32,000 bases of DNA, taken from NCBI RefSeq assembly GCF_000017845.1, contig NC_010546.1:2040001-2072000 (forward strand), written 5' to 3'. The stretch comes from Crocosphaera subtropica ATCC 51142. Lineage in GTDB: Bacteria; Cyanobacteriota; Cyanobacteriia; Cyanobacteriales; Microcystaceae. A program made the position numbers and the translations under genes. The notes beneath the pieces are model-generated. The model made no database searches. It saw only the letters and a program-made list of their open reading frames with translations, and had not been told where the DNA came from. Below, in pieces: positions 1,491 to 16,129 of the stretch; positions within the stretch are counted from its first letter, which is position 1; every line of letters starts with the position of its first letter.

Positions 1491-2351
1491 ATGTCTACCA
1501 ACGACGATCGCTTTGAGATCAAATTTTGGGGAGTTCGAGGTAGTATCCCCTGTCCAGGAACCCAAACCGTCCGTTATGGCGGTAATACGTCCTGTGTAGA
1601 AATGCGTGTCGGCAAGGAGAGATTAATCTTTGATGGAGGGACGGGACTGAGGATTTTAGGGGAGTCTTTATTATCAGAAATGCCAGTAACCGGTCATTTG
1701 TTTTTCACCCATTCTCACTGGGATCATATTCAAGGATTTCCTTTTTTTGCCCCTGCATTTATTCCTGGCAATCAGTTTCATATTTATGGCTTACCAGCCC
1801 CTAATGGCGCAACCATTAAGCAACGTCTTCATGATCAAATGTTACACCCTAATTTTCCCGTTCCCTTGCAAATTATGCAAGCTAATTTAGACTTTTATGA
1901 TATTGAAGCTAGGGAAATTATTAAGATTAACGATATTACCATCGAAACAGGAAAATTAAATCATCCAGGAGAAGCTTTAGGATATCGGGTAACGTATCAA
2001 GGTTTAACGGCAGTGTATATCACGGATACGGAACATTTTCCTGATAGATTAGATAATAATGTTCTCCATTTAGCTAACCATGCACAGGTTTTAATTATTG
2101 ATACGACTTACACCAATGAAGAATACTATGACCCGAAATTAAGTAAAGTGGGTTGGGGCCATTCGACTTGGCAAGAAGGGGTTAAAATAGCTGAAGCTGC
2201 TAAGGTGAAAAAATTAGTCTTGTTTCATCACGATCCTTCTCATCATGATGATTGTCTCGACACTATTAAACGACAAGTTCAACAGGTTTATCCTAATGCT
2301 ATTTTGGCAAAAGAAGGTTTAGTTATCGATTTAAAAAATGAATTTGCTTAA
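1491..2351 (+). CDS. MBL-fold metallo-hydrolase
   Basis: 286-aa ORF with the metallo-beta-lactamase HxHxDH motif (FTHSHWDHIQG) and later His/Asp ligands (ITDTEH, LFHHDP). It starts 207 nt from the divergent adaptor gene. Confidence 0.85.
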   Translation: MSTNDDRFEIKFWGVRGSIPCPGTQTVRYGGNTSCVEMRVGKERLIFDGGTGLRILGESLLSEMPVTGHLFFTHSHWDHIQGFPFFAPAFIPGNQFHIYGLPAPNGATIKQRLHDQMLHPNFPVPLQIMQANLDFYDIEAREIIKINDITIETGKLNHPGEALGYRVTYQGLTAVYITDTEHFPDRLDNNVLHLANHAQVLIIDTTYTNEEYYDPKLSKVGWGHSTWQEGVKIAEAAKVKKLVLFHHDPSHHDDCLDTIKRQVQQVYPNAILAKEGLVIDLKNEFA

Positions 2352-2355
2352 CTTT

Positions 2356-2614
2356 AACTGACATCTTACACCTTCGATAATCCCCCCTCTAACTTCCCCT
2401 AAAAAGACACCTCTTAAAAATTGATTGAATTATCATGGTTATTAACGTAAATTCGGGATAAGCTCAAAGGCTAATAAAATCGTTGCCTAAAACACCCATT
2501 ATTTTGTTAAATATGATCTAACTCCGTTGCGTAGCACGACTTAGTCGCACTCCGAACCCCTAACCCCGAACTCAGGTTTATTAAGTTTATTTGTGCTGAT
2601 GTAAGATATCAGTT
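2356..2614. mobile_element. MITE-like non-coding element bounded by 15-17 bp terminal inverted repeats
   Basis: Left arm is AACTGACATCTTACA at 2356-2370. Right arm is TGTAAGATATCAGTT at 2600-2614, whose reverse complement is AACTGATATCTTACA (14/15 identical). No ORF inside. A third copy of the arm (AACTGACATCTTGCACC) lies at 30962-30978. Confidence 0.4.
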
Positions 2615-4002
2615 CACAGTCCTAAAATCATCCTAGCAATAGAAAAATAAATCAATACCCCAATCACATCCACTGCAGTGGTAATAAAAGGGGCTGACAT
2701 TAAAGCTGGATCAAGGCCAAAAGACCGAAAAACAAAGGGTAAAGCCGAACCAGCGACAGAGGCTAAAATGGCGATCGCTACTAAACTGACTCCCACCGAT
2801 ATCGAAACCAACCAATTACCTTGGAGTCCATAAGCCCATACAGTGGCTAACAGGCCTAAGGCCACACCTAACAAAGCCCCGGCCATCAATTCCCTTAAGA
2901 TCACTTGTCCGGCACCGAGATCCATAATTTCCTCTGTATTTAAACCCCGAATGACCACCGTTGAGGACTGGGCTCCAACATTACCACCGGTTCCCGTTAA
3001 CAGGGGAATAAACGCCGTTAGAATAGCCATTTGTTCGAGTAAACCCACTTGAGATTTAATAATGGTTCCGGTGACGGTATTCGTCAACAGTAAAATTAGT
3101 AACCACATGACCCGTTTACGGGCTACTGTAATTAAACTGGTCTGAAAGTAGTTATCTCCATCAGACTGAACCCCACCTAAAGCATAGATATCTTCGGTGG
3201 CTTCTTGTTGTAGGATATCAATGACATCATCAACGGTCACAACGCCCACTAATCTTTGTTCTTTGTCCACCACTGGAACCGCTAATAAATCATACCGTTG
3301 AATCACCCGTGCAACTTCTTCTTGATCGTCATTGGTATTAACAGAAACAATCTCTTTAGCCATGATCTCCCCTAGGGTTACCTCTGGGGAGGATAATACC
3401 AACTCTCTTAACGAAACAATACCCACCAAATGACGAAAAGCATCGGTGACATAGAGATAATAAACAATTTCTGAAGCAGTGGCTAAAGTTCTAATTCTTT
3501 CTAAGGTTTGAGCAACAGTGAAACTTTGTTTGAGGGAAATATACTCTGGGGTCATGATCCGACCGGCAGTATATTCTTCGTAGCCTAATAACAATGCGGT
3601 GGTTTGTCTTTCTTCGGGGCTTAATTGTTCGAGTAAACGACGGACTACTTTAGCTGGTAATTCATCAAATAAACGGGCCCGATCATCGGGGGACATTTCT
3701 TCTACAATATCCCTAACTTCTTGTTGTTTAAACTGTTCAATTAAGGATTGTTGAACCGTTGAATCTAAATGTTCATAGACAGCGATCGCTTCTTCTTTGA
3801 CCAACAGACGGAAGGCGATCACTTGCATTGACTTAGGTAAACCTTCGATGGCCTCAGCAATATCAACCGGTTGCACAGGAATTAAAAGGGATTTTGCCCC
3901 TTGTAAATTTCCTTGTTCTAATAATAAGGCTAACTGGTTGGAGACTAATTGACGCAACTCTTTACGGCTATTTGATTGTATTGGTGTTACGGGTTCATTC
4001 AA
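2614..4002 (-). CDS. mgtE: Magnesium transporter MgtE
   Basis: 462 aa with an N-terminal MgtE-N helical region (LDSTVQQSLIEQF, MSPDDRARLFDELP), a tandem CBS region (LVGIVSLRELV, LVGVVTVDDVIDIL) and a C-terminal 5-TM channel domain (TGTGGNVGAQSSTVVIRGL). Confidence 0.95.
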   Translation of the reverse strand: MNEPVTPIQSNSRKELRQLVSNQLALLLEQGNLQGAKSLLIPVQPVDIAEAIEGLPKSMQVIAFRLLVKEEAIAVYEHLDSTVQQSLIEQFKQQEVRDIVEEMSPDDRARLFDELPAKVVRRLLEQLSPEERQTTALLLGYEEYTAGRIMTPEYISLKQSFTVAQTLERIRTLATASEIVYYLYVTDAFRHLVGIVSLRELVLSSPEVTLGEIMAKEIVSVNTNDDQEEVARVIQRYDLLAVPVVDKEQRLVGVVTVDDVIDILQQEATEDIYALGGVQSDGDNYFQTSLITVARKRVMWLLILLLTNTVTGTIIKSQVGLLEQMAILTAFIPLLTGTGGNVGAQSSTVVIRGLNTEEIMDLGAGQVILRELMAGALLGVALGLLATVWAYGLQGNWLVSISVGVSLVAIAILASVAGSALPFVFRSFGLDPALMSAPFITTAVDVIGVLIYFSIARMILGL

Positions 4003-4064
4003 GGTTCACCTGTTCCTTTTGCTGATCATAATGATATTAACAAAAGTTGACCTTGATCACGACA

Positions 4065-4526
4065 TTAATATTTGAATCCCCGTAAAACTTGTAAGTCTTC
4101 TTCGTCGAGAGTTTCTCTAACTCCATTACAAATTAACTCTGAAAAGTCTTCATTGGGAACCATAAAACAAATCGCATATAAACGACTTTTACCAATATTT
4201 CTGATTTCATGAATACCTGTAGGACGGACTAATAGACTATCCCCTGGATGTAAAGGAATATCTTTTCCATCGCAAACCGCTAACCCTTCCCCTTTAAGAA
4301 TAAAAAACATTTCGAGGGCAAAGTTATGTCGATGGGTTGGGGTACTTCCCCCTGGATCAAAAATTTCGACGCAAACCGTCAAGGAATCATCGGCCATACT
4401 GGTATCAAAGACGATCGCTAAACGGTTAGTATCCTGGGGAGTGATGCGAAAAACTTGATAATCTTCAGGACTTTTGATCACTGGAATCATACAGTGATCG
4501 CTGGCTATCGTAGAATGGGTATTCAT
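4065..4526 (-). CDS. Cupin domain protein
   Basis: 153 aa. Cupin motif 1 is GGSTPTHRHNFALEMFFILKG and motif 2 is GDSLLVRPTGIHEIRN. It ends 62 nt upstream of mgtE on the same strand, so the two are probably co-transcribed. Confidence 0.8.
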   Translation of the reverse strand: MNTHSTIASDHCMIPVIKSPEDYQVFRITPQDTNRLAIVFDTSMADDSLTVCVEIFDPGGSTPTHRHNFALEMFFILKGEGLAVCDGKDIPLHPGDSLLVRPTGIHEIRNIGKSRLYAICFMVPNEDFSELICNGVRETLDEEDLQVLRGFKY

Positions 4527-4879: not shown

Positions 4880-5169
4880 TTTTGTTATCTCCTGTTAGAT
4901 ATTGTTTCGTTGCTTTACGATAGGGAATAATTATTTTAAGTAAAGATTCCTGTTGAATCTTCTACATAAGGAATAAGATAAGCATAATTATTTATTTTAA
5001 CAATCATCATTCTTTGATTCGGATATTTAGAGGAATTGGGGTGAATCAAATCATAGAGAATATCACCTTTTTTTATGGTTTGATGATCATTTCAAATGAT
5101 ACCCCTCTCTCTATTTTTAATATTTCATTTTTCTCCTTATTCCATTTAATTCGTTTTAATTCGTTTCAT
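4866..5169 (-). pseudogene. BrnT (DUF497)-like toxin, disrupted
   Basis: Reverse-strand conceptual translation across three frames gives MKRIKWNKEKNEILKIERGVSFEMIIKP / IKKGDILYDLIHPNSSKYPNQRMMIVKINNYAYLIPYVEDSTGIF / LKIIIPYRKATKQYL. Lesions are a perfect 10-bp tandem duplication (TTAATTCGTT at 5146-5155 and 5156-5165), a shift at an A7 run and a 1-nt shift near GIF. The last frame overlaps the antitoxin start by 14 nt. Confidence 0.55.
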
Positions 5170-5194
5170 TCGTTATTATTGTATTTGCTGATTA

Positions 5195-6064
5195 TTAATC
5201 GTCTTTGAGTAACCAAAAACCACTAAATGTCTCTACATCGGGACGAGATTGAATAGCGAGAAAATGCACCCCATTTGCTTTATTTTTGCTCTGTTCAAAC
5301 CCTTCGGCTTCTGTTACACTACTTTTATCGGTTAGATTCGCTAAAATCCAATTATCACTTAAGCCAGTTTCGAGGCAAAGGTTAGGAAACGGTTTGGTCT
5401 GAAACTTAAGAGAAACCAACTCTAACCCGGACATCCAACCAGCTAAGGGTAAAGCACGTCGAGAAAAGATGATAAACCCTGGTATTTTCGTGTCAGGGGA
5501 AAGATTAGCTAATTCTAAGGGAAACCCTTCCCCAAAGCGAATATCCCACTCCTTCATGTCTGCAAACCCTGACGCTTCGAGACTGACAAAGGCCCATTTA
5601 TCGGACTTATCCCCTCTCACTGCATCCGGTAAAGCGATCGCATCTAGGGGAGGATAAGCGACAGATGCGTTAGTAGCGGCTTTTTCATCATAACCCTCTT
5701 GAGAGGGATAAAAGTCTTGAAACCGTTGATTTATCCAATGGTTGAGGGTATAGGTGCGACGACTGGGAGACGCGACGAGTCCGGCATCTTCGCAAGCTTT
5801 TACAATCATATTATTCATCTGACGACGAAAAAAGCGGATTTTACTGGGGGTTTCTCCTGCTTTCTCGATGGCAGTTTCTAATGCTTCTCGTAACCAGATG
5901 GAGTTAACTGTACTAGGAGGACAAAATTCAGCATAACGAAACCCTTTATCTAAGGACTCTGTGGTATCTGTCTGGGTTTCACAGATCAAGACTTCCCATT
6001 GTTTTTTGTTATTTTCGTCTAAAATTGGTCGTGAATAAAAATCGAGTTCCCAAACTTTGCCCAT
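5195..6064 (-). CDS. Tab2-family RNA-binding protein (DUF1092)
   Basis: 289 aa. The N-terminus (WELDFYSRPILDENNKKQWEVLICE) is the hallmark of cyanobacterial Tab2/ATAB2 homologues. Confidence 0.85.
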   Translation of the reverse strand: MGKVWELDFYSRPILDENNKKQWEVLICETQTDTTESLDKGFRYAEFCPPSTVNSIWLREALETAIEKAGETPSKIRFFRRQMNNMIVKACEDAGLVASPSRRTYTLNHWINQRFQDFYPSQEGYDEKAATNASVAYPPLDAIALPDAVRGDKSDKWAFVSLEASGFADMKEWDIRFGEGFPLELANLSPDTKIPGFIIFSRRALPLAGWMSGLELVSLKFQTKPFPNLCLETGLSDNWILANLTDKSSVTEAEGFEQSKNKANGVHFLAIQSRPDVETFSGFWLLKDD

Positions 6065-6240
6065 GATTTACCCTTAATGGTTGATCAGATCATATTTTAT
6101 CAGATTAGTAAATTAAAAAATATTTATTATTTCAATTATTACTAGATTTAAACTTTATCTAAACTGATAAACCTTTTATTATTATATATTAAAAGTAGGC
6201 CGATGCACTGCCCACCTTACACGGCTAGAATAGTTTAACT

Positions 6241-7497
6241 ATGGAAACTAATGAACCTATTACCAATGAATCTAAAACCATAAGTATAAGTGATTTGAAA
6301 TCTTTTACGATTCGTGGATTATTTGGTTATAAAGATATTGTTCTACCATTGGATAAAGAAGTTTTGATTTTAATTGCTGAAAATGGGGCAGGAAAAACGA
6401 ATATTCTCAATATTTTATATCAAGTTTTAAGTTTAGATATAAATATAACTAAGTCATTAAAATTTAATTCTATCTGTATTCAATTTAATAATTATAAAAA
6501 ATGTGAATTGGATTTTACTGAAATTGATCAGGAAGCATTGAAAAAATTAATTAAACCCAATGATTTGTTCGTTGTGATGGATATTATAGGTTCAGAAAAC
6601 AGGGAAAAAATAGAAAAAGAAGAAAAAATAATTAGTCAGTTTGAAATAAATTGGCAGGAAATTCAAAAGATAGATTTTAATACTTTATATTTTCCGACTT
6701 ATCGAAGAATAGAAGAAGATTTATCTAACCTTGGATATGAAAATCCTAAGCGTAACTATAATAATACAACCACATTAATTAAATTTGGAATGGAAGACGT
6801 TAAAAAGGAATTTAAGGAAATACAAACAGAAATTAAGAATACTGCATTTGAATTATTTTCAAGAGTTACAGGGGAAATGTTGACTCACTTTATTGAAGGA
6901 TTAAATGTAACGCAAGAAATGAGAGAAAGTATTAATATTGATATTTTGAATTTAATTTTAAGTCGTGTTGGAGAAAAAAATATTTCTAAAATAGAACAGG
7001 AAAAAATGAAAGAGTTAGTTATTTCGGGACAAATTAATGAACCTAAGTATGATGATTTAGTTTACTTCTTATCTAAACTAATTAATCTCTACCAAGATCA
7101 AAAAACAATAGACGAAACTATTAAATCTTTTGTCAATGTCTGCAATAAATACCTAAATCCCAGTAAAAAAATTATTTATGATGAGTCAATAGCAGAAATC
7201 TATATTAAACAAACTAGAAACAATGAAATCATAGAATTAAATCACTTATCTTCTGGAGAAAAACAAATCATTTCTTTATTCTCTAAAGTTTATCTAGAAG
7301 CAGAAGAAGACTTTATCTTAATTATTGATGAACCTGAATTATCTATATCCGTTGAATGGCAACAGATGCTACTTCCTGATATTATGAAATCAGGTAAATG
7401 TAAACGACTGATTGCAGCGACTCATTCTCCTTTTATTTTTGATAATGAATTAGATCATTGTGCTTACGCTTTAAGTCAATTTGTAACTGAACATTAA
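6241..7497 (+). CDS. ABC/SMC-type ATPase, AriA-like partner of a DUF4435 nuclease
   Basis: 418 aa with Walker A (LIAENGAGKTNIL), an ABC signature-like motif (LSSGEKQIISL), Walker B (FILIIDEPELS) and an H-loop (IAATHSPFIF). A long Lys/Glu-rich helical insert separates the two ATPase lobes. Very AT-rich. Confidence 0.8.
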   Translation: METNEPITNESKTISISDLKSFTIRGLFGYKDIVLPLDKEVLILIAENGAGKTNILNILYQVLSLDINITKSLKFNSICIQFNNYKKCELDFTEIDQEALKKLIKPNDLFVVMDIIGSENREKIEKEEKIISQFEINWQEIQKIDFNTLYFPTYRRIEEDLSNLGYENPKRNYNNTTTLIKFGMEDVKKEFKEIQTEIKNTAFELFSRVTGEMLTHFIEGLNVTQEMRESINIDILNLILSRVGEKNISKIEQEKMKELVISGQINEPKYDDLVYFLSKLINLYQDQKTIDETIKSFVNVCNKYLNPSKKIIYDESIAEIYIKQTRNNEIIELNHLSSGEKQIISLFSKVYLEAEEDFILIIDEPELSISVEWQQMLLPDIMKSGKCKRLIAATHSPFIFDNELDHCAYALSQFVTEH

Positions 7498-7503
7498 TTT
7501 TAA

Positions 7504-8460
7504 ATGGCAAATAATCCCGATCAATTAAGAGATTTTAGAGGTAAAGCGACGGTTGCTTTTACTTTATTTACAAGACAATACGAAAAAAATAAATTAGCTT
7601 TGTTTTGCTTCTTTGAGGGAAAAGATGATAGTAAATATTACAGTGTGAGAATTGATTTAATTGTCAAACCAATAGATGATAATTATTTTCCCTGTGGTAA
7701 AAAGTCAGAAGTTTTAAGAACTCATTCTTTAATTACTGAGCAAGAATATTATAATCATGCTAAAACAGCTTATTTTATTGATAAAGATTTTGATGAGTCT
7801 ATCTATAAAACTTTAGATGCTGATAATGCAAGTAAAATTTATGAAACCCCTTGTTATTCTATTGAAAATTTTTATACATCGAGTTATTGTTTTAAACGAA
7901 TTCTTAGAAGTGAATTTACTATTGATGAAATAGATGATAATTTTGATACCTGTTTAGACTTATATGAAAATAGACAAAATGAATTCCATGAAAAAGTTGG
8001 ATTATTGAATGCTTATATTGCTTGTTTAATGAAAAAAGATGAGCAAGAAAAACTTGATTTAAAAAGTAAACACAATAAATTAATGAAATGGTTTATTATA
8101 GAATTAGATAAAATAAAATCAAACTATAATCTTGAAACTTTAAATAATGAATTTTCGCCCAAAAATAATCCTTCACAGCAAGACATTAATAAAGAACTTA
8201 ATTACTTAAGATCCCAAGATTGTCAAAAAAGTTTTCGAGGAAAATTTGAAATAGAATTTTTACGTAAATTTTTAGAAAAACTAAAAGAAGAAGCTAATAA
8301 AAAAAAAGATCAACAAATCTATTTTTCCAAGAAACTAACTGTTTCATTATTGTTGAGTAACGATAATATTCTCTCTCAGTTATCTCAATATGCAGATACT
8401 CCTGATTGTTTGGTCAAATATCTAGAACAATTTAAAGAAAACGTCAATACAAATCAATAA
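7504..8460 (+). CDS. DUF4435/Toprim-like nuclease, AriB-like
   Basis: 318 aa, starting 6 nt after the ATPase stop. Acidic motifs occur in DUF4435/Toprim order: FFEGKDDSKYYS (E38), CGKK, FIDKDFD (D93/D95/D97) and YSIENFY (E121). Confidence 0.8.
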   Translation: MANNPDQLRDFRGKATVAFTLFTRQYEKNKLALFCFFEGKDDSKYYSVRIDLIVKPIDDNYFPCGKKSEVLRTHSLITEQEYYNHAKTAYFIDKDFDESIYKTLDADNASKIYETPCYSIENFYTSSYCFKRILRSEFTIDEIDDNFDTCLDLYENRQNEFHEKVGLLNAYIACLMKKDEQEKLDLKSKHNKLMKWFIIELDKIKSNYNLETLNNEFSPKNNPSQQDINKELNYLRSQDCQKSFRGKFEIEFLRKFLEKLKEEANKKKDQQIYFSKKLTVSLLLSNDNILSQLSQYADTPDCLVKYLEQFKENVNTNQ

Positions 8461-8706
8461 AAAACAATCAAAATCAACAATAAGAGAAATAGATTAAAAG
8501 AAGATAACAAAATAGAAAAAAATCTAGGTTACAGTACCCAAAATAAGGTAAATTAAAGGTGGAATGTTGCTCTATTTAAGGTAAAGAGTTTGATAAAAAA
8601 GTAGAGAGTTTGATTAATTTTTGTAAATGAGTTGAAACCCTTAATAAGCGTCACTTCCGACTTATAATCATAAAGATTACATAAACCTTTGTTGAGGTCT
8701 ATCGTT

Positions 8707-10686
8707 ATGGTTGCATCCTCCGAAAAAAATAACATTGAATCTGTCTTACAAGAAAAACGGGTTTTTAACCCTCCGGCTGACTTTGCTACCAACGCACATA
8801 TCAAAAGTCTTCAACAATATGAAGAACTATATGAGAAGGCCAAAAACGATCCCGAAACCTTTTGGGCAGAACTAGCAGAACAAGAATTATATTGGTTCGA
8901 GAAATGGGATCAAGTTCTAGACTGGAACCCCCCCACCGCCAAATGGTTTGTTAATGGCAAACTGAATATGTCCTATAACTGCCTCGATCGCCATCTTACC
9001 ACTTGGCGACGCAACAAAGCAGCTATTATCTGGGAAGGAGAACCCGGCGACTCTCGCACCCTCACCTACGGGGAACTACACCGAGAAGTGTGTCAGTTTG
9101 CCAATGTGTTGAAAGACATGGGAGTGCAAAAAGGCGATCGCGTGGGTATTTATATGCCGATGGTTCCCGAAGCTGCGATCGCTATGTTAGCCTGTACTCG
9201 GATCGGTGCGCCCCATAGTGTCGTATTTGGTGGGTTTAGTGCCGAAGCATTACGCGATCGCTTAGAAGATGCAGAGGCTAAAGTTGTCATTACTGCGGAT
9301 GGGGGGTTTCGCAAAGATAAGATCGTTCCCCTGAAAATAGAAGTGGATCAAGCCCTCGAAAATGGGGCTTCTAGCGTCGAAAAAGTGATCGTTGTACAAC
9401 GGACCAAACAAGATGTTACCATGCGCGAAGGACGTGATTATTGGTGGCACGATCTCCAAAAAGATGCCTCTCCTAAATGCGATGCAGAAGTAATGGATAG
9501 CGAAGATCCCCTATTCATTCTCTATACCAGTGGTAGTACAGGAAAACCTAAAGGGGTTGTCCATACCACCGGCGGTTATAACCTTTATACCCACATGACC
9601 ACAAAATGGATCTTTGATCTCAAAGACACCGATGTTTATTGGTGTACTGCCGATGTGGGTTGGATCACGGGACACAGTTACATTGTTTATGGTCCTCTTT
9701 CTAATGGTGCAACATCTTTGATGTATGAAGGGGTTCCTCGTCCCTCTAACCCTGGTTGTTTTTGGGATGTGGTAGAAAAATACGGGGTCAATGTCTTTTA
9801 TACTGCACCTACAGCTATCCGTGCATTTATGAAGATGGGAGAAGAATTACCCAACGCCAGGGATCTCTCATCCTTGCGTTTGTTGGGAACCGTCGGGGAA
9901 CCCATCAACCCCGAAGCTTGGATGTGGTATCACCGAGTTATTGGGGGTGAAAAATGTCCTATCGTTGATACTTGGTGGCAAACCGAAACCGGTGGGATCA
10001 TGATTACACCGTTACCTGGGGCCACACCCACCAAACCGGGATCAGCGACTCGTCCTTTCCCTGGTATTATTGCCGATGTGGTGGACAAAGACGGGAACCC
10101 CGTTCCCAACAATGCCGGAGGATATCTCGTTATTAAACATCCCTGGCCCAGTATGTTACGCACTGTTTATAATAACCCTGAACGCTTCCAAAAGACCTAT
10201 TGGGACCCCATTCCTGAAGTTGAAGGGAAACCGGTCTATTTCGCTGGTGATAGTGCGCGGAAGGATGAAAACGGCTATTTTTGGATTATGGGCCGCACCG
10301 ATGACGTGATGAATGTCTCCGGACACCGTTTGGGTTCAATGGAGTTAGAGTCTGCGTTAGTGTCTCATCCTGCAGTTGCTGAAGCGTCTGTGGTTGGGGT
10401 TCCCCATGAGATCAAAGGGGAAGATATTTATGCTTTTGTTACCTTGAAGGATAATTATAGCCCCAGTGACGAGTTAAATAAGGAGTTAAAACAGCACGTC
10501 GTAACTAAAATTAGTGCGATCGCTCGTCCGGGTACTATACAGTTTGCTGAAGCATTACCTAAAACGCGATCGGGTAAAATTGTACGGCGTTTCTTACGTC
10601 AAATAGCTGCCGGTCAAGATATTGTAGGAGATAAGTCTACGGTAGTTGATCCAAGTGTTTTGGATCAGTTGAGAGAGAAGGGTTAA
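8707..10686 (+). CDS. acs: Acetyl-CoA synthetase (acetate-CoA ligase)
   Basis: Motifs include [31 protein letters not shown], the AMP-binding motif [18 protein letters not shown] and [12 protein letters not shown] prefer ATG 8707 (MVASSEKNN...) to the TTG at 8689 used by the ORF track. Confidence 0.95.
9134..9141. repeat. HIP1 octamer GCGATCGC (representative copy)
   Basis: Exact GCGATCGC also read at 207, 438, 2771, 3782, 5634, 9175, 9254, 10516, 13489 and 26651 (start positions). None lies within 6065-8690 and only one within 10690-13850. Confidence 0.9.
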
Positions 10687-10697
10687 TTGTTAGTTTA

Positions 10698-10719
10698 GGG
10701 TGGGCTTTTTTAGCTCACC
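10698..10719 (+). terminator. Imperfect hairpin after acs (GGGTGGGC-loop-GCTCACC), a degenerate member of the GGTGGGCA/TGCCCACC palindrome family
   Basis: GGGTGGGC at 10698-10705, a TTTTTTA loop, then GCTCACC at 10713-10719, 12 nt after the acs stop. No clean downstream T-run. Confidence 0.35.
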
Positions 10720-10765
10720 TTATTCGTCTAAATCTTATTCCCATCAAGTTATAGTAATTTTTCTA

Positions 10766-10942
10766 ATGCCAACTCACGAACAACTAGAAGGACTTTATCG
10801 AATTTGTTATTATTTAACTTATCGAGCTTTACAACCCATACATCTCATTTGTACCGATGAAAGAACAGGTAATCTGTTTATTTTGGCAGGAGATAAGGAA
10901 AATATCGAAATTGAAATAACCCCTAATGGAGAGGTAATTTAA
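10766..10942 (+). CDS. DUF6888-like small protein
   Basis: 58 aa from ATG 10766 (MPTHEQLEGLYRICYYLTYRALQPIHLICTDERTGNLFILAGDKENIEIEITPNGEVI), resembling the cyanobacterial DUF6888 family. The track's 10700 start lies inside the acs hairpin. Its TAA stop overlaps the next ATG (TAATG at 10940-10944). Confidence 0.6.
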   Translation: MPTHEQLEGLYRICYYLTYRALQPIHLICTDERTGNLFILAGDKENIEIEITPNGEVI

Positions 10943-11157
10943 TGTCAGAGATTAATTATGATCAAATGTCAGACCAAGAACTTAGACAATATTTCTTAGA
11001 ACATAAAAATGATCAACCTGCTTTACAAGCATATTTGCAAAGACGAAATAAACAACGGAGACAAGTTATTACAAAAGTTGGTGATCCTGATTTTGATTTG
11101 AAGATAGAAAAGGCAATTAAATCAAAATTAGAAAGCCGTATCAATAGACAATTATAA
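10942..11157 (+). CDS. DUF6887-like small protein
   Basis: 71 aa. The N-terminus (INYDQMSDQELRQYFLEHKNDQPALQAYLQR) is typical of the cyanobacterial DUF6887 family that pairs with DUF6888. Confidence 0.65.
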   Translation: MSEINYDQMSDQELRQYFLEHKNDQPALQAYLQRRNKQRRQVITKVGDPDFDLKIEKAIKSKLESRINRQL

Positions 11158-11179
11158 AATCAGGGTAAAATAAATAATA

Positions 11180-12859
11180 ATGAAGCCTAAAGTTTGGATT
11201 GAAAAAATAAAATTTAGTGATGATTCAGAAGTTACTTTTGACTCTAATCAGATTGTCGTATTTGTTGGACCTAACAATGTAGGAAAAAGTGCATCATTGA
11301 AAGAGTTAAATATTTTAACGAGAAGTAATCATAAGAATGGAAAAGTTATTAAAGACTTCAGGTTACAAAAAGAAGGTAGCATAGACTATTTAGTAGAATA
11401 TCTTGAAAAATTTTCAATGAAAGAATTTTCAAATAATCCTGAACCTCACTATAAAGGTTATAGATTTAATGTATATAAAGGTAATTGTCGTAGTTGGTGG
11501 AGTATGAATAATCAACTTTTAGATTTACAACCTGTTTTTATTAACTTAATTAAAACTGAAGATAGATTAACTGCTGCAAACCCACCTAAGAATATATCAT
11601 TAACTAAAGATGCAATACAACATCCGATTCATTTTTTGCAAAAAGATGACACCATAGAAAAACAATTTAGTGACTATTTTAGACAAGCATTCGGTCAAGA
11701 TTTAATTGTTCATAGAAATGCAGGAGATCATGTTCCTTTATATATTGGTCAAAAACCCATACCTAAAGAGGGTGAAGATAGAGTATCAAGAAGTTATTTA
11801 GAAGAACTAGAAAAACTACCTTTATTACATGAACAAGGAGATGGAATGCGTAGCTTTGTTGGGGTTTTATTAAATGCTTTTATTTCTAATCATAATATTT
11901 TATTGATTGATGAACCTGAAGCATTTTTACATCCTCCTCAAGCGAGACTTTTAGGGAAAATGTTAGCCAAAGATTTACCCACTGACAGACAGTTATTTTT
12001 AGCAACTCATAGCAGTGATTTTTTAAGAGGATTATTAGAAGCACAAGTTTCTAGACTGAAAATTATTAGAATAGAAAGAGAAAAGCATATAAATAAAATT
12101 AGTGTGTTAGATAATTCAGAGATTATAGAAGTTTGGAATGATCCACTGCTAAGACATTCAAATATTTTAGATGGTTTATTTCATTCTAAAGTCATTATTT
12201 GTGAGAGTGATTCTGATTGTAGATTTTATTCCGCAATTCTACAAAGTATATATGAGAATGAATCTAACATTAGTCCCGATTTTCTCTTTGTTCATTGTGG
12301 AGGAAAACATAGAGTTAGTTCTGTAGTGAAAGCATTAAAACAATTAAATGTAAATGTTAATAGTATTTTAGATTTTGATGTTTTAAACAATCAAAACCCA
12401 TTAAAACAGATTTTTGAAGAGTTAGGAGGTGATTGGTCAATCATTGAAAAAGACTGGAAACTTGTGAAAACAAAAATAGATGAAAAAAGACCAGAACTAA
12501 CAACAGAAGATGTAAAAAAAGAGTTGAGTTTAATTCTTGAATCAACGACAGACAGAATTTTTCCTAAAAATAAAATAAAAGAAGTTGAAAATATCCTTAA
12601 AAAAGTTTCAGCATGGCAAGATGCTAAAAAAGTCGGTAAAAGTTTTATTCCTAATGGTGATCCAACTCAAGCTTATCAAAGATTAATTGTAGAATTAGAA
12701 CAAGTAGGATTAATGATTGTAGAAGTAGGAGAACTGGAAAGCTTTGTAAGATCAATTGGAAATCATGGGCCAAAATGGGTTAATGAAGTATTATATAAAG
12801 ACTTCGCTAATGATCCTGAATTACATGATGCAAGAGAATTTGTTAAAAAATTAATTTAG
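11180..12859 (+). CDS. Fused ABC-type ATPase + DUF4435/Toprim-like nuclease (OLD-family / merged-PARIS-like)
   Basis: 559 aa. The N-terminal half has Walker A (FVGPNNVGKSASL), a signature-like motif (QGDGMRSFVGVL), Walker B (ILLIDEPEAFLHPPQ) and an H-loop (LATHSSDF). The C-terminal half has ICESDSDCRFYS (E342), HCGGK, ILDFDV (D398/D400) and WSIIEKDW (E423), the same order as in the separate 318-aa ORF at 7504-8460. Confidence 0.8.
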   Translation: MKPKVWIEKIKFSDDSEVTFDSNQIVVFVGPNNVGKSASLKELNILTRSNHKNGKVIKDFRLQKEGSIDYLVEYLEKFSMKEFSNNPEPHYKGYRFNVYKGNCRSWWSMNNQLLDLQPVFINLIKTEDRLTAANPPKNISLTKDAIQHPIHFLQKDDTIEKQFSDYFRQAFGQDLIVHRNAGDHVPLYIGQKPIPKEGEDRVSRSYLEELEKLPLLHEQGDGMRSFVGVLLNAFISNHNILLIDEPEAFLHPPQARLLGKMLAKDLPTDRQLFLATHSSDFLRGLLEAQVSRLKIIRIEREKHINKISVLDNSEIIEVWNDPLLRHSNILDGLFHSKVIICESDSDCRFYSAILQSIYENESNISPDFLFVHCGGKHRVSSVVKALKQLNVNVNSILDFDVLNNQNPLKQIFEELGGDWSIIEKDWKLVKTKIDEKRPELTTEDVKKELSLILESTTDRIFPKNKIKEVENILKKVSAWQDAKKVGKSFIPNGDPTQAYQRLIVELEQVGLMIVEVGELESFVRSIGNHGPKWVNEVLYKDFANDPELHDAREFVKKLI

Positions 12860-12862
12860 TGT

Positions 12863-12877
12863 GATCTCGAAGAGATC
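12863..12877 (+). terminator. Short hairpin 4 nt after the ATPase-nuclease stop
   Basis: GATCTC-GAA-GAGATC (12863-12877), followed by CACTTT and a second T-run at 12893-12897. Weak. Confidence 0.3.
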
Positions 12878-12921
12878 CACTTTGCGGTGCGCCTTTTTAT
12901 AGGGTGTATTAATGAAATGTA

Positions 12922-13332
12922 ATGCACCAACTTGCTGTTATTATTTTAAACTATTTTAGTTCACCTGATAAAATTAATAAGGAGAAGACTATTATCGTTA
13001 ATCTACTGCCTTATGTTGATAATGCTAAGGTTGATATTCGTAAACTGCGTGATTATTGTCTTAATCCCGATCATGATGATGGTAAGCACAAAGCTCATTT
13101 ATTTTCGTCAATTTTAGGGATGACTGCTGATAATGCCGAAGAATTACGTCAAATTATTTTTAAGATGATCAAAACCCATGAAGCTAAATTAGGACGAAAG
13201 GATAAATATGGTCAACGTTACACGGTAGATTTTACACTTAAATGGCAAAACAAAAGTGCAATAATTAGAACAGGTTGGATTATCGAAAATCATTCTAAAA
13301 TTCCGAAATTAACTACTTGCTATCCCCTTTAA
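12922..13332 (+). CDS. DUF6883-like protein (putative toxin-like partner of DUF4926)
   Basis: The conserved core (VDIRKLRDYCLNPDHDDGKHKAHLFSSILGMTADNAEELRQII...YGQRYTVDF...WIIENHSKIPKLTTCYPL) matches the DUF6883 family as I remember it. The true start is uncertain: an AAGGAG at 12979-12984 precedes an in-frame ATT at 12991, while ATG 12922 has no Shine-Dalgarno sequence. Confidence 0.65.
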   Translation: MHQLAVIILNYFSSPDKINKEKTIIVNLLPYVDNAKVDIRKLRDYCLNPDHDDGKHKAHLFSSILGMTADNAEELRQIIFKMIKTHEAKLGRKDKYGQRYTVDFTLKWQNKSAIIRTGWIIENHSKIPKLTTCYPL

Positions 13333-13352
13333 TTTTTTGGAGGTCAAATAAA

Positions 13353-13607
13353 ATGAAAACTGATAAAGTAAAATTGCTTGATGTAGTTGCCTTAACGGTT
13401 GATATTCCTGAAGATAAACTATTTAAAGGTCAAGTCGGTACAGTTGTTGATATTTTAGCCGATGGAACAGCGTATGAAGTTGAATTTAGCGATCGCAATG
13501 GACGAACTTACGAATCTCTTGGACTCAGTGCTGACCAATTTATGATATTACACTTTGAGCCAATTAACCCTAATTCAACCTCAGAAATGATTACCACCAA
13601 AGTATAA
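13353..13607 (+). CDS. DUF4926-like small protein
   Basis: 84 aa from ATG 13353, preceded by GGAGG at 13339-13343. LLDVVALTVDIPEDKLFKGQVGTVVDILADGTAYEVEFSDRNGRTYESLGLSADQFMILH is typical of DUF4926. Contains the only HIP1 site of this insert. Confidence 0.8.
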   Translation: MKTDKVKLLDVVALTVDIPEDKLFKGQVGTVVDILADGTAYEVEFSDRNGRTYESLGLSADQFMILHFEPINPNSTSEMITTKV

Positions 13608-15547: not shown

Positions 15548-16129
15548 ATGGTAATTGATGTACAGAAAAAAACAAAATTCTATACTCCTGAAGAATATTT
15601 AAAGTTAGAAGCTGATGCTCAACAACGACATCATTATATTAAAGGAGAAATCATTGAAATGGCTGGCGGTACTCCTAATCATAATAAGATAGCATTAAAC
15701 TTAAGTAGTGCTTTAAACTTTGCCTTTAAAGGTAAACCATTAGATATTTTTATGACAGATCAAAGGTTATGGATTCCTTCAGAAAAAATCTACACTTATC
15801 CTGATATAATGGTAGTTGAGCAACCTTTAAACTATGCTCAAAATCGCAATGATACTTTAATTAATCCTTTGCTCATTGTTGAAGTGTTATCTACGTCAAC
15901 AAGGAATTATGATAAAGACGAAAAATTTGCAGCTTATCGGACTATTTCTAGTTTTCAAGAATATATTTTAATTGATCAAAATTGTATCCATATTGAACAA
16001 TATATCCGACAAGACTCGAATAAATGGACGTTTATTGAATACAATAATTCTACGGATACTTTAATCCTATCTTCGGTTAATTTTGAAATCGAACTTGTTG
16101 ATATTTACGATAAAGTCAATTTAAGCTAA
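15548..16129 (+). CDS. Uma2-family endonuclease (DUF820)
   Basis: 193 aa with YTPEEYLKLEADAQQRHHYIKGEIIEMAGGTPNHNKIALNL, YPDIMVV, LIVEVLSTST and KFAAYRTI, the restriction-endonuclease-like fold typical of cyanobacterial Uma2. Confidence 0.85.
   Translation: MVIDVQKKTKFYTPEEYLKLEADAQQRHHYIKGEIIEMAGGTPNHNKIALNLSSALNFAFKGKPLDIFMTDQRLWIPSEKIYTYPDIMVVEQPLNYAQNRNDTLINPLLIVEVLSTSTRNYDKDEKFAAYRTISSFQEYILIDQNCIHIEQYIRQDSNKWTFIEYNNSTDTLILSSVNFEIELVDIYDKVNLS

Follow-up and report, generated by a model that had tools for sequence, protein, structure and literature searches.

A probable two-gene PARIS system of a divergent, mainly cyanobacterial clade in Crocosphaera subtropica ATCC 51142

PARIS, a class 4 system of the OLD family, has been dissected only in Escherichia coli and shown to be active in Lactococcus, where a plasmid-borne PARIS is reported to act against lactococcal phages (Grafakou et al. 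2024a, as cited in PMC13064643). Such systems are recognised by a rule (Rousset 2022 and DefenseFinder) at which a gene for an ABC ATPase, ariA, is directly followed by a co-oriented DUF4435 gene, ariB, or is fused to it, with at least 32 bits to AAA_15 or at least 27 bits to AAA_21, together with at least 27 bits to DUF4435. Here, we analyze a stretch of 32,000 nucleotides from Crocosphaera subtropica ATCC 51142 (the window, to which positions refer unless another locus is named) and a pair of genes within it that very probably constitutes a two-gene PARIS abortive-infection system, belonging to a divergent and mainly cyanobacterial clade separate from both studied lineages. ORF2 of the pair is identical to cce_2015, and ORF1 to the adjoining gene, which is annotated as “putative ATP/GTP-binding protein”. 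The literature yielded nothing on cce_2014, cce_2015 and cce_2017, nor any characterised member from cyanobacteria, in line with what a first reading of the window, made from the sequence alone, had supposed. Standard defence-annotation tools would already flag the pair. Testing it would show how far the model of tRNA cleavage and anti-restriction sensing generalises, and would give a first entry point to abortive infection in a cyanobacterium that serves as a diazotrophic model. The two genes are:

6241..7497, + strand: ariA-like gene (ORF1), 418 aa, a predicted ABC/SMC-type sensor ATPase.
7504..8460, + strand: ariB-like gene (ORF2), 318 aa, a predicted DUF4435 Toprim nuclease effector.

The lengths of both ORFs and the 6-nt spacer between them (TTTTAA, from the ORF1 stop to the ORF2 ATG) agree exactly with the sequence-only reading, and the motifs it had quoted from both proteins were all found at the residues it named. 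Its central proposal, a pair of ABC ATPase and DUF4435/Toprim genes of PARIS architecture, is borne out by the profile searches it had called for. ORF1 scores 54.6 bits with AAA_15 (1.9e-14) and 52.0 bits with AAA_21 (1.4e-13), and ORF2 scores 257.3 bits with DUF4435 over its full length (2e-76); at 6 nt apart, the two pass the PARIS rule. Among PADLOC models, the best match of ORF1 is AriA (PDLC04164, 4.6e-31), ahead of PtuA (1e-14), AbiLi (1.8e-9), mad3 (1.1e-8) and every other model by at least 16 orders of magnitude. In fact, ORF1 scores 106.3 bits with this AriA-specific model, compared to 106.4 bits for an E. coli-clade AriA. ORF2 matches the PADLOC AriB model (3.3e-59) and no other, and searches of Pfam and PADLOC returned no HNH, RloB, DUF4276, OLD-Toprim (PF20469), mad4 or AbiLii match for it.

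Comparison with solved structures leads to the same place. Among PDB sequences, the E. coli AriA (8V45/8UX9) is the best match of ORF1, at 6.5e-13 with the single sequence and at 8.7e-18 with a profile of 20 sequences, for which the next match, retron/Septu PtuA (8.8e-7), is 11 orders weaker. The AlphaFold2 (AF2) model of ORF1, built from 20 sequences, is of low confidence (pLDDT 55, pTM 0.45); its top 14 Foldseek matches are AriA chains (3.5e-13 to 4e-10), followed by retron PtuA (1e-8), which lends weak support to an AriA fold. Thus by PDB profile, PADLOC and Foldseek alike, ORF1 lies nearer to the solved AriA than to other defence ABC ATPases. The ORF2 model is better (pLDDT 84.6, pTM 0.79) and ranks AriB first and second in the PDB (8UX9_A, E 1e-4; 8V46_D, 3e-4; probability 1.00), with a TM score of 0.48-0.53 over the full length and about 14% identity; OLD-family Toprim domains are its next structural neighbours (E >= 0.28). 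The solved AriA and AriB chains are therefore the top fold matches of both ORFs. Between a true AriAB and an AbiL- or OLD-like lineage, the results decide for PARIS, though in a clade remote from the systems tested in E. coli and Lactococcus.

The ATP-binding and hydrolysis residues, the signature and the H-loop of ORF1 are all kept and align to E. coli AriA (invariance over 20 homologues):

6376..6402, + strand: Walker A, AENGAGKTN (from aa 46; K52), with G49, G51, K52 and T53 invariant.
7246..7266, + strand: ABC signature, LSSGEKQ (from aa 336), with L336 through Q342 invariant.
7315..7344, + strand: Walker B, ILIIDEPELS (from aa 359; D363, E364), with D363-S368 invariant.
7417..7431, + strand: H-loop, ATHSP (from aa 393; H395), with T394, H395, S396 and P397 invariant.

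K52 is the counterpart of E. coli AriA K39, where K39A stops both Ocr binding and AriB release. E364 is aligned to E393 in “LIDEPEISL”, the site of the ATPase mutants E393A/Q, and ATHSP is aligned to “CTHSP”. As for the K/E-rich helical insert described in ORF1 from the sequence alone, the enrichment stands, yet it is mild (28% K+E in aa 86-200 against 20% in the whole protein). With respect to the coiled-coil four-helix bundle and the hexamer-forming interfaces (HH and CC) of AriA, the low-confidence model (pLDDT 55, pTM 0.45) predicts long helices at aa 184-219 and 268-305.

The Toprim acidic set is likewise present in ORF2 (invariance over 24 homologues):

7609..7644, + strand: Toprim glutamate motif, FFEGKDDSKYYS (from aa 36; E38, D42), with E38, G39 and D42 invariant.
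7693..7704, + strand: CGKK motif (from aa 64), with K67 invariant and C64 nearly so.
7774..7794, + strand: Toprim DxD motif, FIDKDFD (from aa 91; D93, D95, D97), with D95 and D97 invariant and D93 in at least 90%.
7855..7875, + strand: YSIENFY motif (from aa 118; E121), with E121 and N122 invariant.

“FEGKDD” (E38, D42) parallels “LVEGRHDRS” (E26, D30) of E. coli AriB, in which E26A abolishes defence. When a broad DUF4435 profile from 72 loci is aligned by hhalign with E. coli-type AriB (P = 0.003), the motifs fall in register, with D93/D95 on D88/E90 and E121 on E122 in “HSLENYF”. Hence E38/D42/D93-D95(/D97)/E121 and E26/D30/D88/E90/E122 match in order and spacing. K67 lies between two Toprim motifs as do the tRNA-holding lysines K60/K64 of E. 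coli AriB, an equivalence drawn from motif order only. For residue mapping, E. coli-clade PARIS pairs were taken from plasmids of Pseudoalteromonas (L084), whose AriB matches the solved AriB at 6e-70, and Planktothrix agardhii (L085). An unconstrained pairwise alignment of ORF2 with AriB was also tried and discarded as spurious.

It is the characterised E. coli AriB, and not ORF2, which stands at the fringe of DUF4435. E. coli AriB (the 8UX9_A fragment) and the L084 and L085 proteins have no match to Pfam DUF4435 (PF14491.11) at E <= 10, yet E. coli-type AriB proteins match the PADLOC AriB profile at 4e-9 to 2e-13 (35-49 bits). Whether PARIS of the E. coli type is picked up may thus hinge on the version of the DUF4435 model. 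The PADLOC profile is common to E. coli AriB (4e-9) and ORF2 (3.3e-59), and ORF2, linked to E. coli AriB only through this shared profile, the fold and the motifs, is a genuine though remote homologue of AriB.

By homology to E. coli PARIS, the AriA-like ATPase would act as an ATP-bound oligomeric scaffold that holds the AriB-like nuclease as an inactive monomer. Binding of a phage-encoded protein to AriA would, in an ATP-dependent manner, release AriB, and the freed nuclease would dimerise and cut host tRNA, so that translation would stop and the infection would be aborted. In E. coli, the cuts fall in the anticodon loops of tRNA-Lys/Thr/Asn. In this scheme the complex, its sequestration and release of the effector, the tRNA target and the phage trigger are all carried over from E. 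coli. Since the effectors share just 14% identity, target and trigger may well differ from those of E. coli PARIS.

A candidate for the seat of trigger specificity is found within AriA itself:

6496..6675, + strand: hypervariable, indel-rich AriA segment (aa 86-145).

In a Crocosphaera metagenome-assembled genome (MAG; L001), which carries the pair at the same site, this segment cannot be aligned by blastn with that of ATCC 51142, whereas elsewhere the alleles are 85-87% identical. Its dN is 0.54 against 0.08-0.12 in the rest of the gene, and the two alleles differ in length here by 29 codons. In 62 homologues, the spacing from Walker A to the PTYRR motif varies from 59 to 159 aa (median 138); it is 96 aa in ORF1. 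Low-scoring, low-confidence alignments place aa 86-145 opposite the region of E. coli AriA with the central-pore residues R116/R119, which Burman et al. tied to trigger binding and found poorly conserved, while Deep et al. located Ocr at the AriA coiled-coil interface; the two cryo-EM studies thus disagree on the Ocr contacts (central and radial pores versus coiled-coil interface). From this, we infer only that the segment could contribute to trigger specificity, and put this forward as a proposal. The two natural Crocosphaera alleles, which differ mainly in this one segment, offer ready material for specificity swaps. Perhaps the clade shares the sequester-and-release principle of E. coli PARIS and has its own cyanophage trigger, other than an Ocr-like DNA mimic, and its own RNA targets, with specificity set through aa 86-145; we consider this combination possible, and somewhat doubtful as a whole.

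Several points weigh against reading the pair as a PARIS system that works as in E. coli. Identity between ORF2 and the characterised AriB is only about 14%, with a TM score of just about 0.5, and neither a phmmer search of ORF2 against PDB chains, nor its 24-sequence profile against the PDB, nor an hhalign of that profile with a single E. coli-clade AriB found anything. It cannot be taken for granted that target and trigger are conserved. With a pLDDT of 55, the AriA model is poor, so that coiled-coil and hexamer geometry are putative. The variable segment of ORF1 is the second shortest of 63 homologues, which could alter or weaken assembly or sensing. Finally, the sensor role of aa 86-145 is uncertain, because the Ocr contacts are disputed and the AriA coiled-coil region is conserved in the clade of ORF1.

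Some of these points feed the alternative that survives best, namely a system of the same family with another effector substrate (other tRNAs, rRNA, mRNA, or DNA as in OLD and Gabija) and a cyanophage trigger not of the Ocr type. In addition to the low identity, the TM score and the missing profile match, the clade has its own invariant acidic residues (D97, E114) and an invariant C-terminal FRGKFEI motif, all missing in the E. coli type, and the next structural neighbours of ORF2 are the DNA-cutting OLD Toprim domains. Moreover, escape from PARIS in Lactococcus maps to mutations in a hypothetical protein, and those phages are not known to encode an anti-restriction protein. A different chemistry is opposed by ORF2 itself, which keeps the Toprim catalytic set and the conserved lysine between the motifs. 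We regard this alternative as unlikely on balance.

Across the family, the pair forms a self-contained unit. A scan of species-representative genomes yielded 71 loci (about 38 of them cyanobacterial, the rest from Bacillota, Bacteroidota, Planctomycetota, Campylobacterota, Pseudomonadota and others), and the DUF4435 gene could be retrieved from 69 of these. In 66 of the 69, across at least eight phyla, it is immediately preceded by a co-oriented AriA-like gene, and no conserved third gene was seen, none recurring beyond five closely related loci. In 5 of the 66 (L027, L039, L049, L054 and L066) the ariA-like gene is split or fragmentary, and L032 is also among the loci with a split, fragmentary or missing ariA-like gene beside an intact or partial DUF4435 gene; such loci could reflect pseudogenisation or errors of MAG assembly. 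Eight of nine IMG/VR viral contigs with a relative carry the ATPase-DUF4435 pair; a tblastn search of ORF2 against 50,697 phage genomes returned no match. The family forms 1,243 clusters (50% identity, E <= 1e-3), the top 150 of which are all stand-alone proteins of about 300 aa, and the clade counts hundreds of members in Nostoc, Anabaena, Microcoleus, Calothrix, Crocosphaera and others. As a separate observation, plasmid p1 of Planktothrix agardhii NIVA-CYA126/8 (L085) carries an E. coli-clade PARIS pair at its positions 2098-4490, with an AriA fragment 51% identical to E. coli AriA; therefore, cyanobacteria hold at least two very different PARIS clades.

In Crocosphaera, the pair sits between the Tab2 gene and acs, at a junction whose content differs among close relatives:

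6187..8573, no strand: variable Tab2-acs junction segment carrying the cassette; homology to Cyanothece sp. BG0011 (L083) ends at 6186 and resumes at 8574.
8419..8460, + strand: 3′ end of ariB, kept as a scar in L081 and duplicated in L001.
Crocosphaera MAG L001: cassette present at 85-87% nucleotide identity, with 1.1 kb of extra DNA.
L081 (Tab2 87% identical): a glycosyltransferase-like gene and a phycobilisome gene fragment; no ariAB.
L083, Cyanothece sp. BG0011 (Tab2 87% identical): a DUF4112 gene and a small ORF; cassette-less.
L082: synteny lost.

Among close relatives, some thus have the pair at the Tab2-acs junction and others do not; universal conservation there, which the sequence-only reading had named as a ground for refutation, is not seen. 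A stretch of about 45 nt with homology to the final codons of ariB persists in L081, fused to the spacer that precedes acs. This remnant is a deletion scar; therefore, the cassette is older than the divergence of these lineages and has been deleted from L081. In L001, the ariB 3′ end is found a second time just upstream of acs. Against L001, dS is 0.60 for ariA and 0.33 for ariB, compared to 0.38 for tab2 and 0.57 for acs on the flanks. Because dS matches the flanking genes and cassette-less L081 keeps an ariB remnant, the cassette is accessory, lost in some lineages and old at this site. Both genes are under purifying selection, somewhat relaxed with respect to the flanks (dN/dS 0.23 for ariA and 0.28 for ariB against 0.15 and 0.06), and the value falls to 0.14 over the C-terminal two-thirds of AriA.

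For the horizontally acquired insert suggested from the sequence alone, the evidence does not support a recent arrival. The composition on which the suggestion drew is real: spot counts of 16/60 G+C at 6361-6420 and 34/60 at 9001-9060 were recounted exactly, the cassette has 25.7% G+C against 37.8% in the rest of the window, and values of 0.23-0.27 in the variable segment compare to 0.36-0.50 in its flanks. Yet G+C of the cassette is below that of its flanks in 59 of 59 loci of the family, by 12 points on average, and low G+C was dropped as a sign of recent transfer since it is a trait of the module whatever the host. Similarly, the absence of HIP1 (GCGATCGC) is genuine, with no site between 5642 and 9133 and four inside acs, among 17 in the window where 0.11 would be expected by chance. 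However, with HIP1 sites as dense as they are in the window, the P of a 2.2-3.5 kb gap is 0.31-0.16, and a longer one (5.1 kb) is present elsewhere in the window; with the gap no more than chance, HIP1 absence as a sign of foreign origin was dropped too.

With this history in hand, a second alternative can be weighed, at which the pair is a decaying or inactive remnant whose shortened AriA no longer assembles or senses and which is heading for loss. The short Walker A-PTYRR spacing (96 aa against a median of 138), the broken ariA genes of L027, L039, L049, L054 and L066, and the deletion of the cassette in L081 would fit this. But both ORFs are intact with all catalytic motifs kept, dN/dS is 0.23-0.28 and as low as 0.14 for the C-terminal two-thirds of AriA, and equally short full-length variants exist in nature (P0197, 406 aa; L020, 417 aa), so that we find a remnant improbable. 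Still less credit goes to another ATPase-nuclease lineage (AbiL, Septu/retron PtuAB, MADS mad3/mad4, Gabija or class 1 OLD) mislabelled through the generic AAA_15/AAA_21 models: such ATPases form one superfamily and ORF1 does match PtuA (1e-14), AbiLi (1.8e-9) and mad3 (1.1e-8), but no other model comes within 16 orders of magnitude of the AriA-specific one, ORF2 matches AriB/DUF4435 only, AriA and AriB lead the PDB rankings by sequence and fold, and no helicase or other third gene is present. That the pair is no more than a toxin-antitoxin or addiction module, which keeps a genomic islet stable and plays no part in phage defence, deserves equally little credit: although E. coli PARIS has been described as toxin-antitoxin-like (Deep et al.) and the pair is a self-contained two-gene unit in many genomic contexts, E. 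coli defence needs both genes and deleting either is non-toxic, relatives lie on prophage-like viral contigs and plasmids as is typical for defence cargo, and the hypervariable ATPase segment fits an arms race.

Some details of the junction may be recorded here. The 1.1-kb segment of L001 (its positions 8961-10098) lies between ariB and the second ariB 3′ end and encodes a phycobilisome-protein-like gene product (156 aa) and a 153-aa protein matching the PADLOC “2TM effector” (7e-8). In L081, a 53-aa fragment of a phycobilisome-like gene (5880-6124) adjoins the ariB scar. Together, the two structures suggest an insertion with duplication, followed by a deletion. Calling the Tab2-acs junction a “defence hotspot” would be unjustified, as the alternative cargo of the relatives bears no defence-gene signature. 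A search for direct or inverted repeats at the borders of the cassette gave none that convinced. Exactly where homology to the cassette-less relatives resumes, a tandem pair of 20-mers (AAGGTAAAGAGTTTGATAAA / AAAGTAGAGAGTTTGATTAA) occupies 8578-8617; it shows partial conservation in L001, L081 and L083, and is a candidate regulatory element of acs. At the other end, a TAGAAT box (6226-6240) lies about 10 nt 5′ of the ariA ATG, and no Shine-Dalgarno-like sequence precedes ariA or ariB, which hints at a leaderless or very short-leader transcript. Promoter and terminator consensus scans gave the same counts as shuffled controls, Rfam had no match in 5000-13500, and the window contains no tRNA genes.

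Downstream of acs, further genes of related or mobile character follow:

10700-11157, + strand: DUF6888/DUF6887 pair (80 and 71 aa, with overlapping stop and start; 5.8e-24 and 1.8e-19).
11180-12859, + strand: single-gene OLD-family ATPase-nuclease, 559 aa, AT-rich, 2.7 kb downstream of the cassette.
12922-13332: DUF6883 ORF, after the OLD gene.
15548-16129: Uma2 putative endonuclease.

The 559-aa OLD gene matches AAA_21 (6.5e-16), AAA_15 (1.8e-14), the OLD-like Toprim PF20469 (3.9e-6) and PADLOC “Old” (2.5e-24). It looks strain-specific, unlike ariAB, because window positions 11136-12889 are missing in both L001 and L081. Thus acs is flanked on both sides by ABC-ATPase/Toprim genes of defence type, of two different OLD classes. 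On its right, the OLD-gene island is bordered by an element of 60-68 nt (12890-12957), which occurs once in the window, once in L001 and in four copies (88-93% identical) in L081 at 2179-3159, near an IS200-like Y1 transposase gene. This element could be a REP/MITE-like mobile repeat marking an insertion boundary. The DUF6888/DUF6887 pair also occurs in several copies in L081, and the region as a whole looks like a patch of small mobile or toxin-antitoxin-like genes.

Set beside the known systems, the Crocosphaera pair shares an AAA_15/AAA_21 ATPase and a Toprim nuclease with class 1 OLD (P2 Old, Vibrio cholerae Old) and with GajA of Gabija (class 2). These are single polypeptides with PF20469, GajA having the helicase GajB as its partner, whereas the pair consists of two genes with DUF4435 and no PF20469 in ORF2, and no helicase or other recurrent neighbour accompanies it. 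AbiL (AbiLi/AbiLii) is likewise a two-gene system of ABC ATPase and Toprim-like effector; ORF1 matches AbiLi at 1.8e-9 against 4.6e-31 for AriA, and ORF2 has no AbiLii match. In Septu and retron PtuAB, the PtuA match (1e-14) is again the weaker one, and ORF2 is a DUF4435 and not an HNH protein.

PARIS of E. coli B185 (PDB 8UX9, 8V45-8V49) has the same gene order and tight spacing, and an AriA that is likewise ABC/SMC-like with the same Walker A, Walker B, signature and H-loop. Its solved chains are the best PDB sequence match for ORF1 and the best fold matches for both ORFs, and its AriB residues E26/D30/D88/E90/E122 correspond to E38/D42/D93-D95/E121 of ORF2. On the other hand, the two effectors share about 14% identity and a TM score of about 0.5 with no direct sequence match, E. 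coli-type AriB lacks the Pfam DUF4435 match for which ORF2 scores 257 bits, and ORF1 is 46 aa shorter than E. coli AriA with a much shorter variable insert. The Crocosphaera pair is chromosomal, at the Tab2-acs junction, while E. coli PARIS resides in a P4 satellite.

Lactococcal PARIS, represented here by L086/L087, which may not be the exact tested alleles, shows the same two-gene architecture of AAA ATPase and DUF4435 protein, and its AriB motifs (FIVDGDFD, YNIENYY) are closer to those of ORF2. It matches at the profile level (AriA 1e-25; broad DUF4435 profile 1.3e-11) and is marginal in pairwise comparison (AriB blastp E 0.01; AriA 32% identity over 142 aa). Lactococcal AriB has 280 aa against 318 aa of ORF2, and the lactococcal system is plasmid-borne and adjoins IS elements. 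The AriA profile of the clade is about equally distant from E. coli-type and lactococcal AriA (1e-24 to 1e-26), and its AriB profile reaches lactococcal AriB only at 1e-11. The clade of ORF1 and ORF2 is hence separate from both experimentally studied lineages, those of E. coli and Lactococcus.

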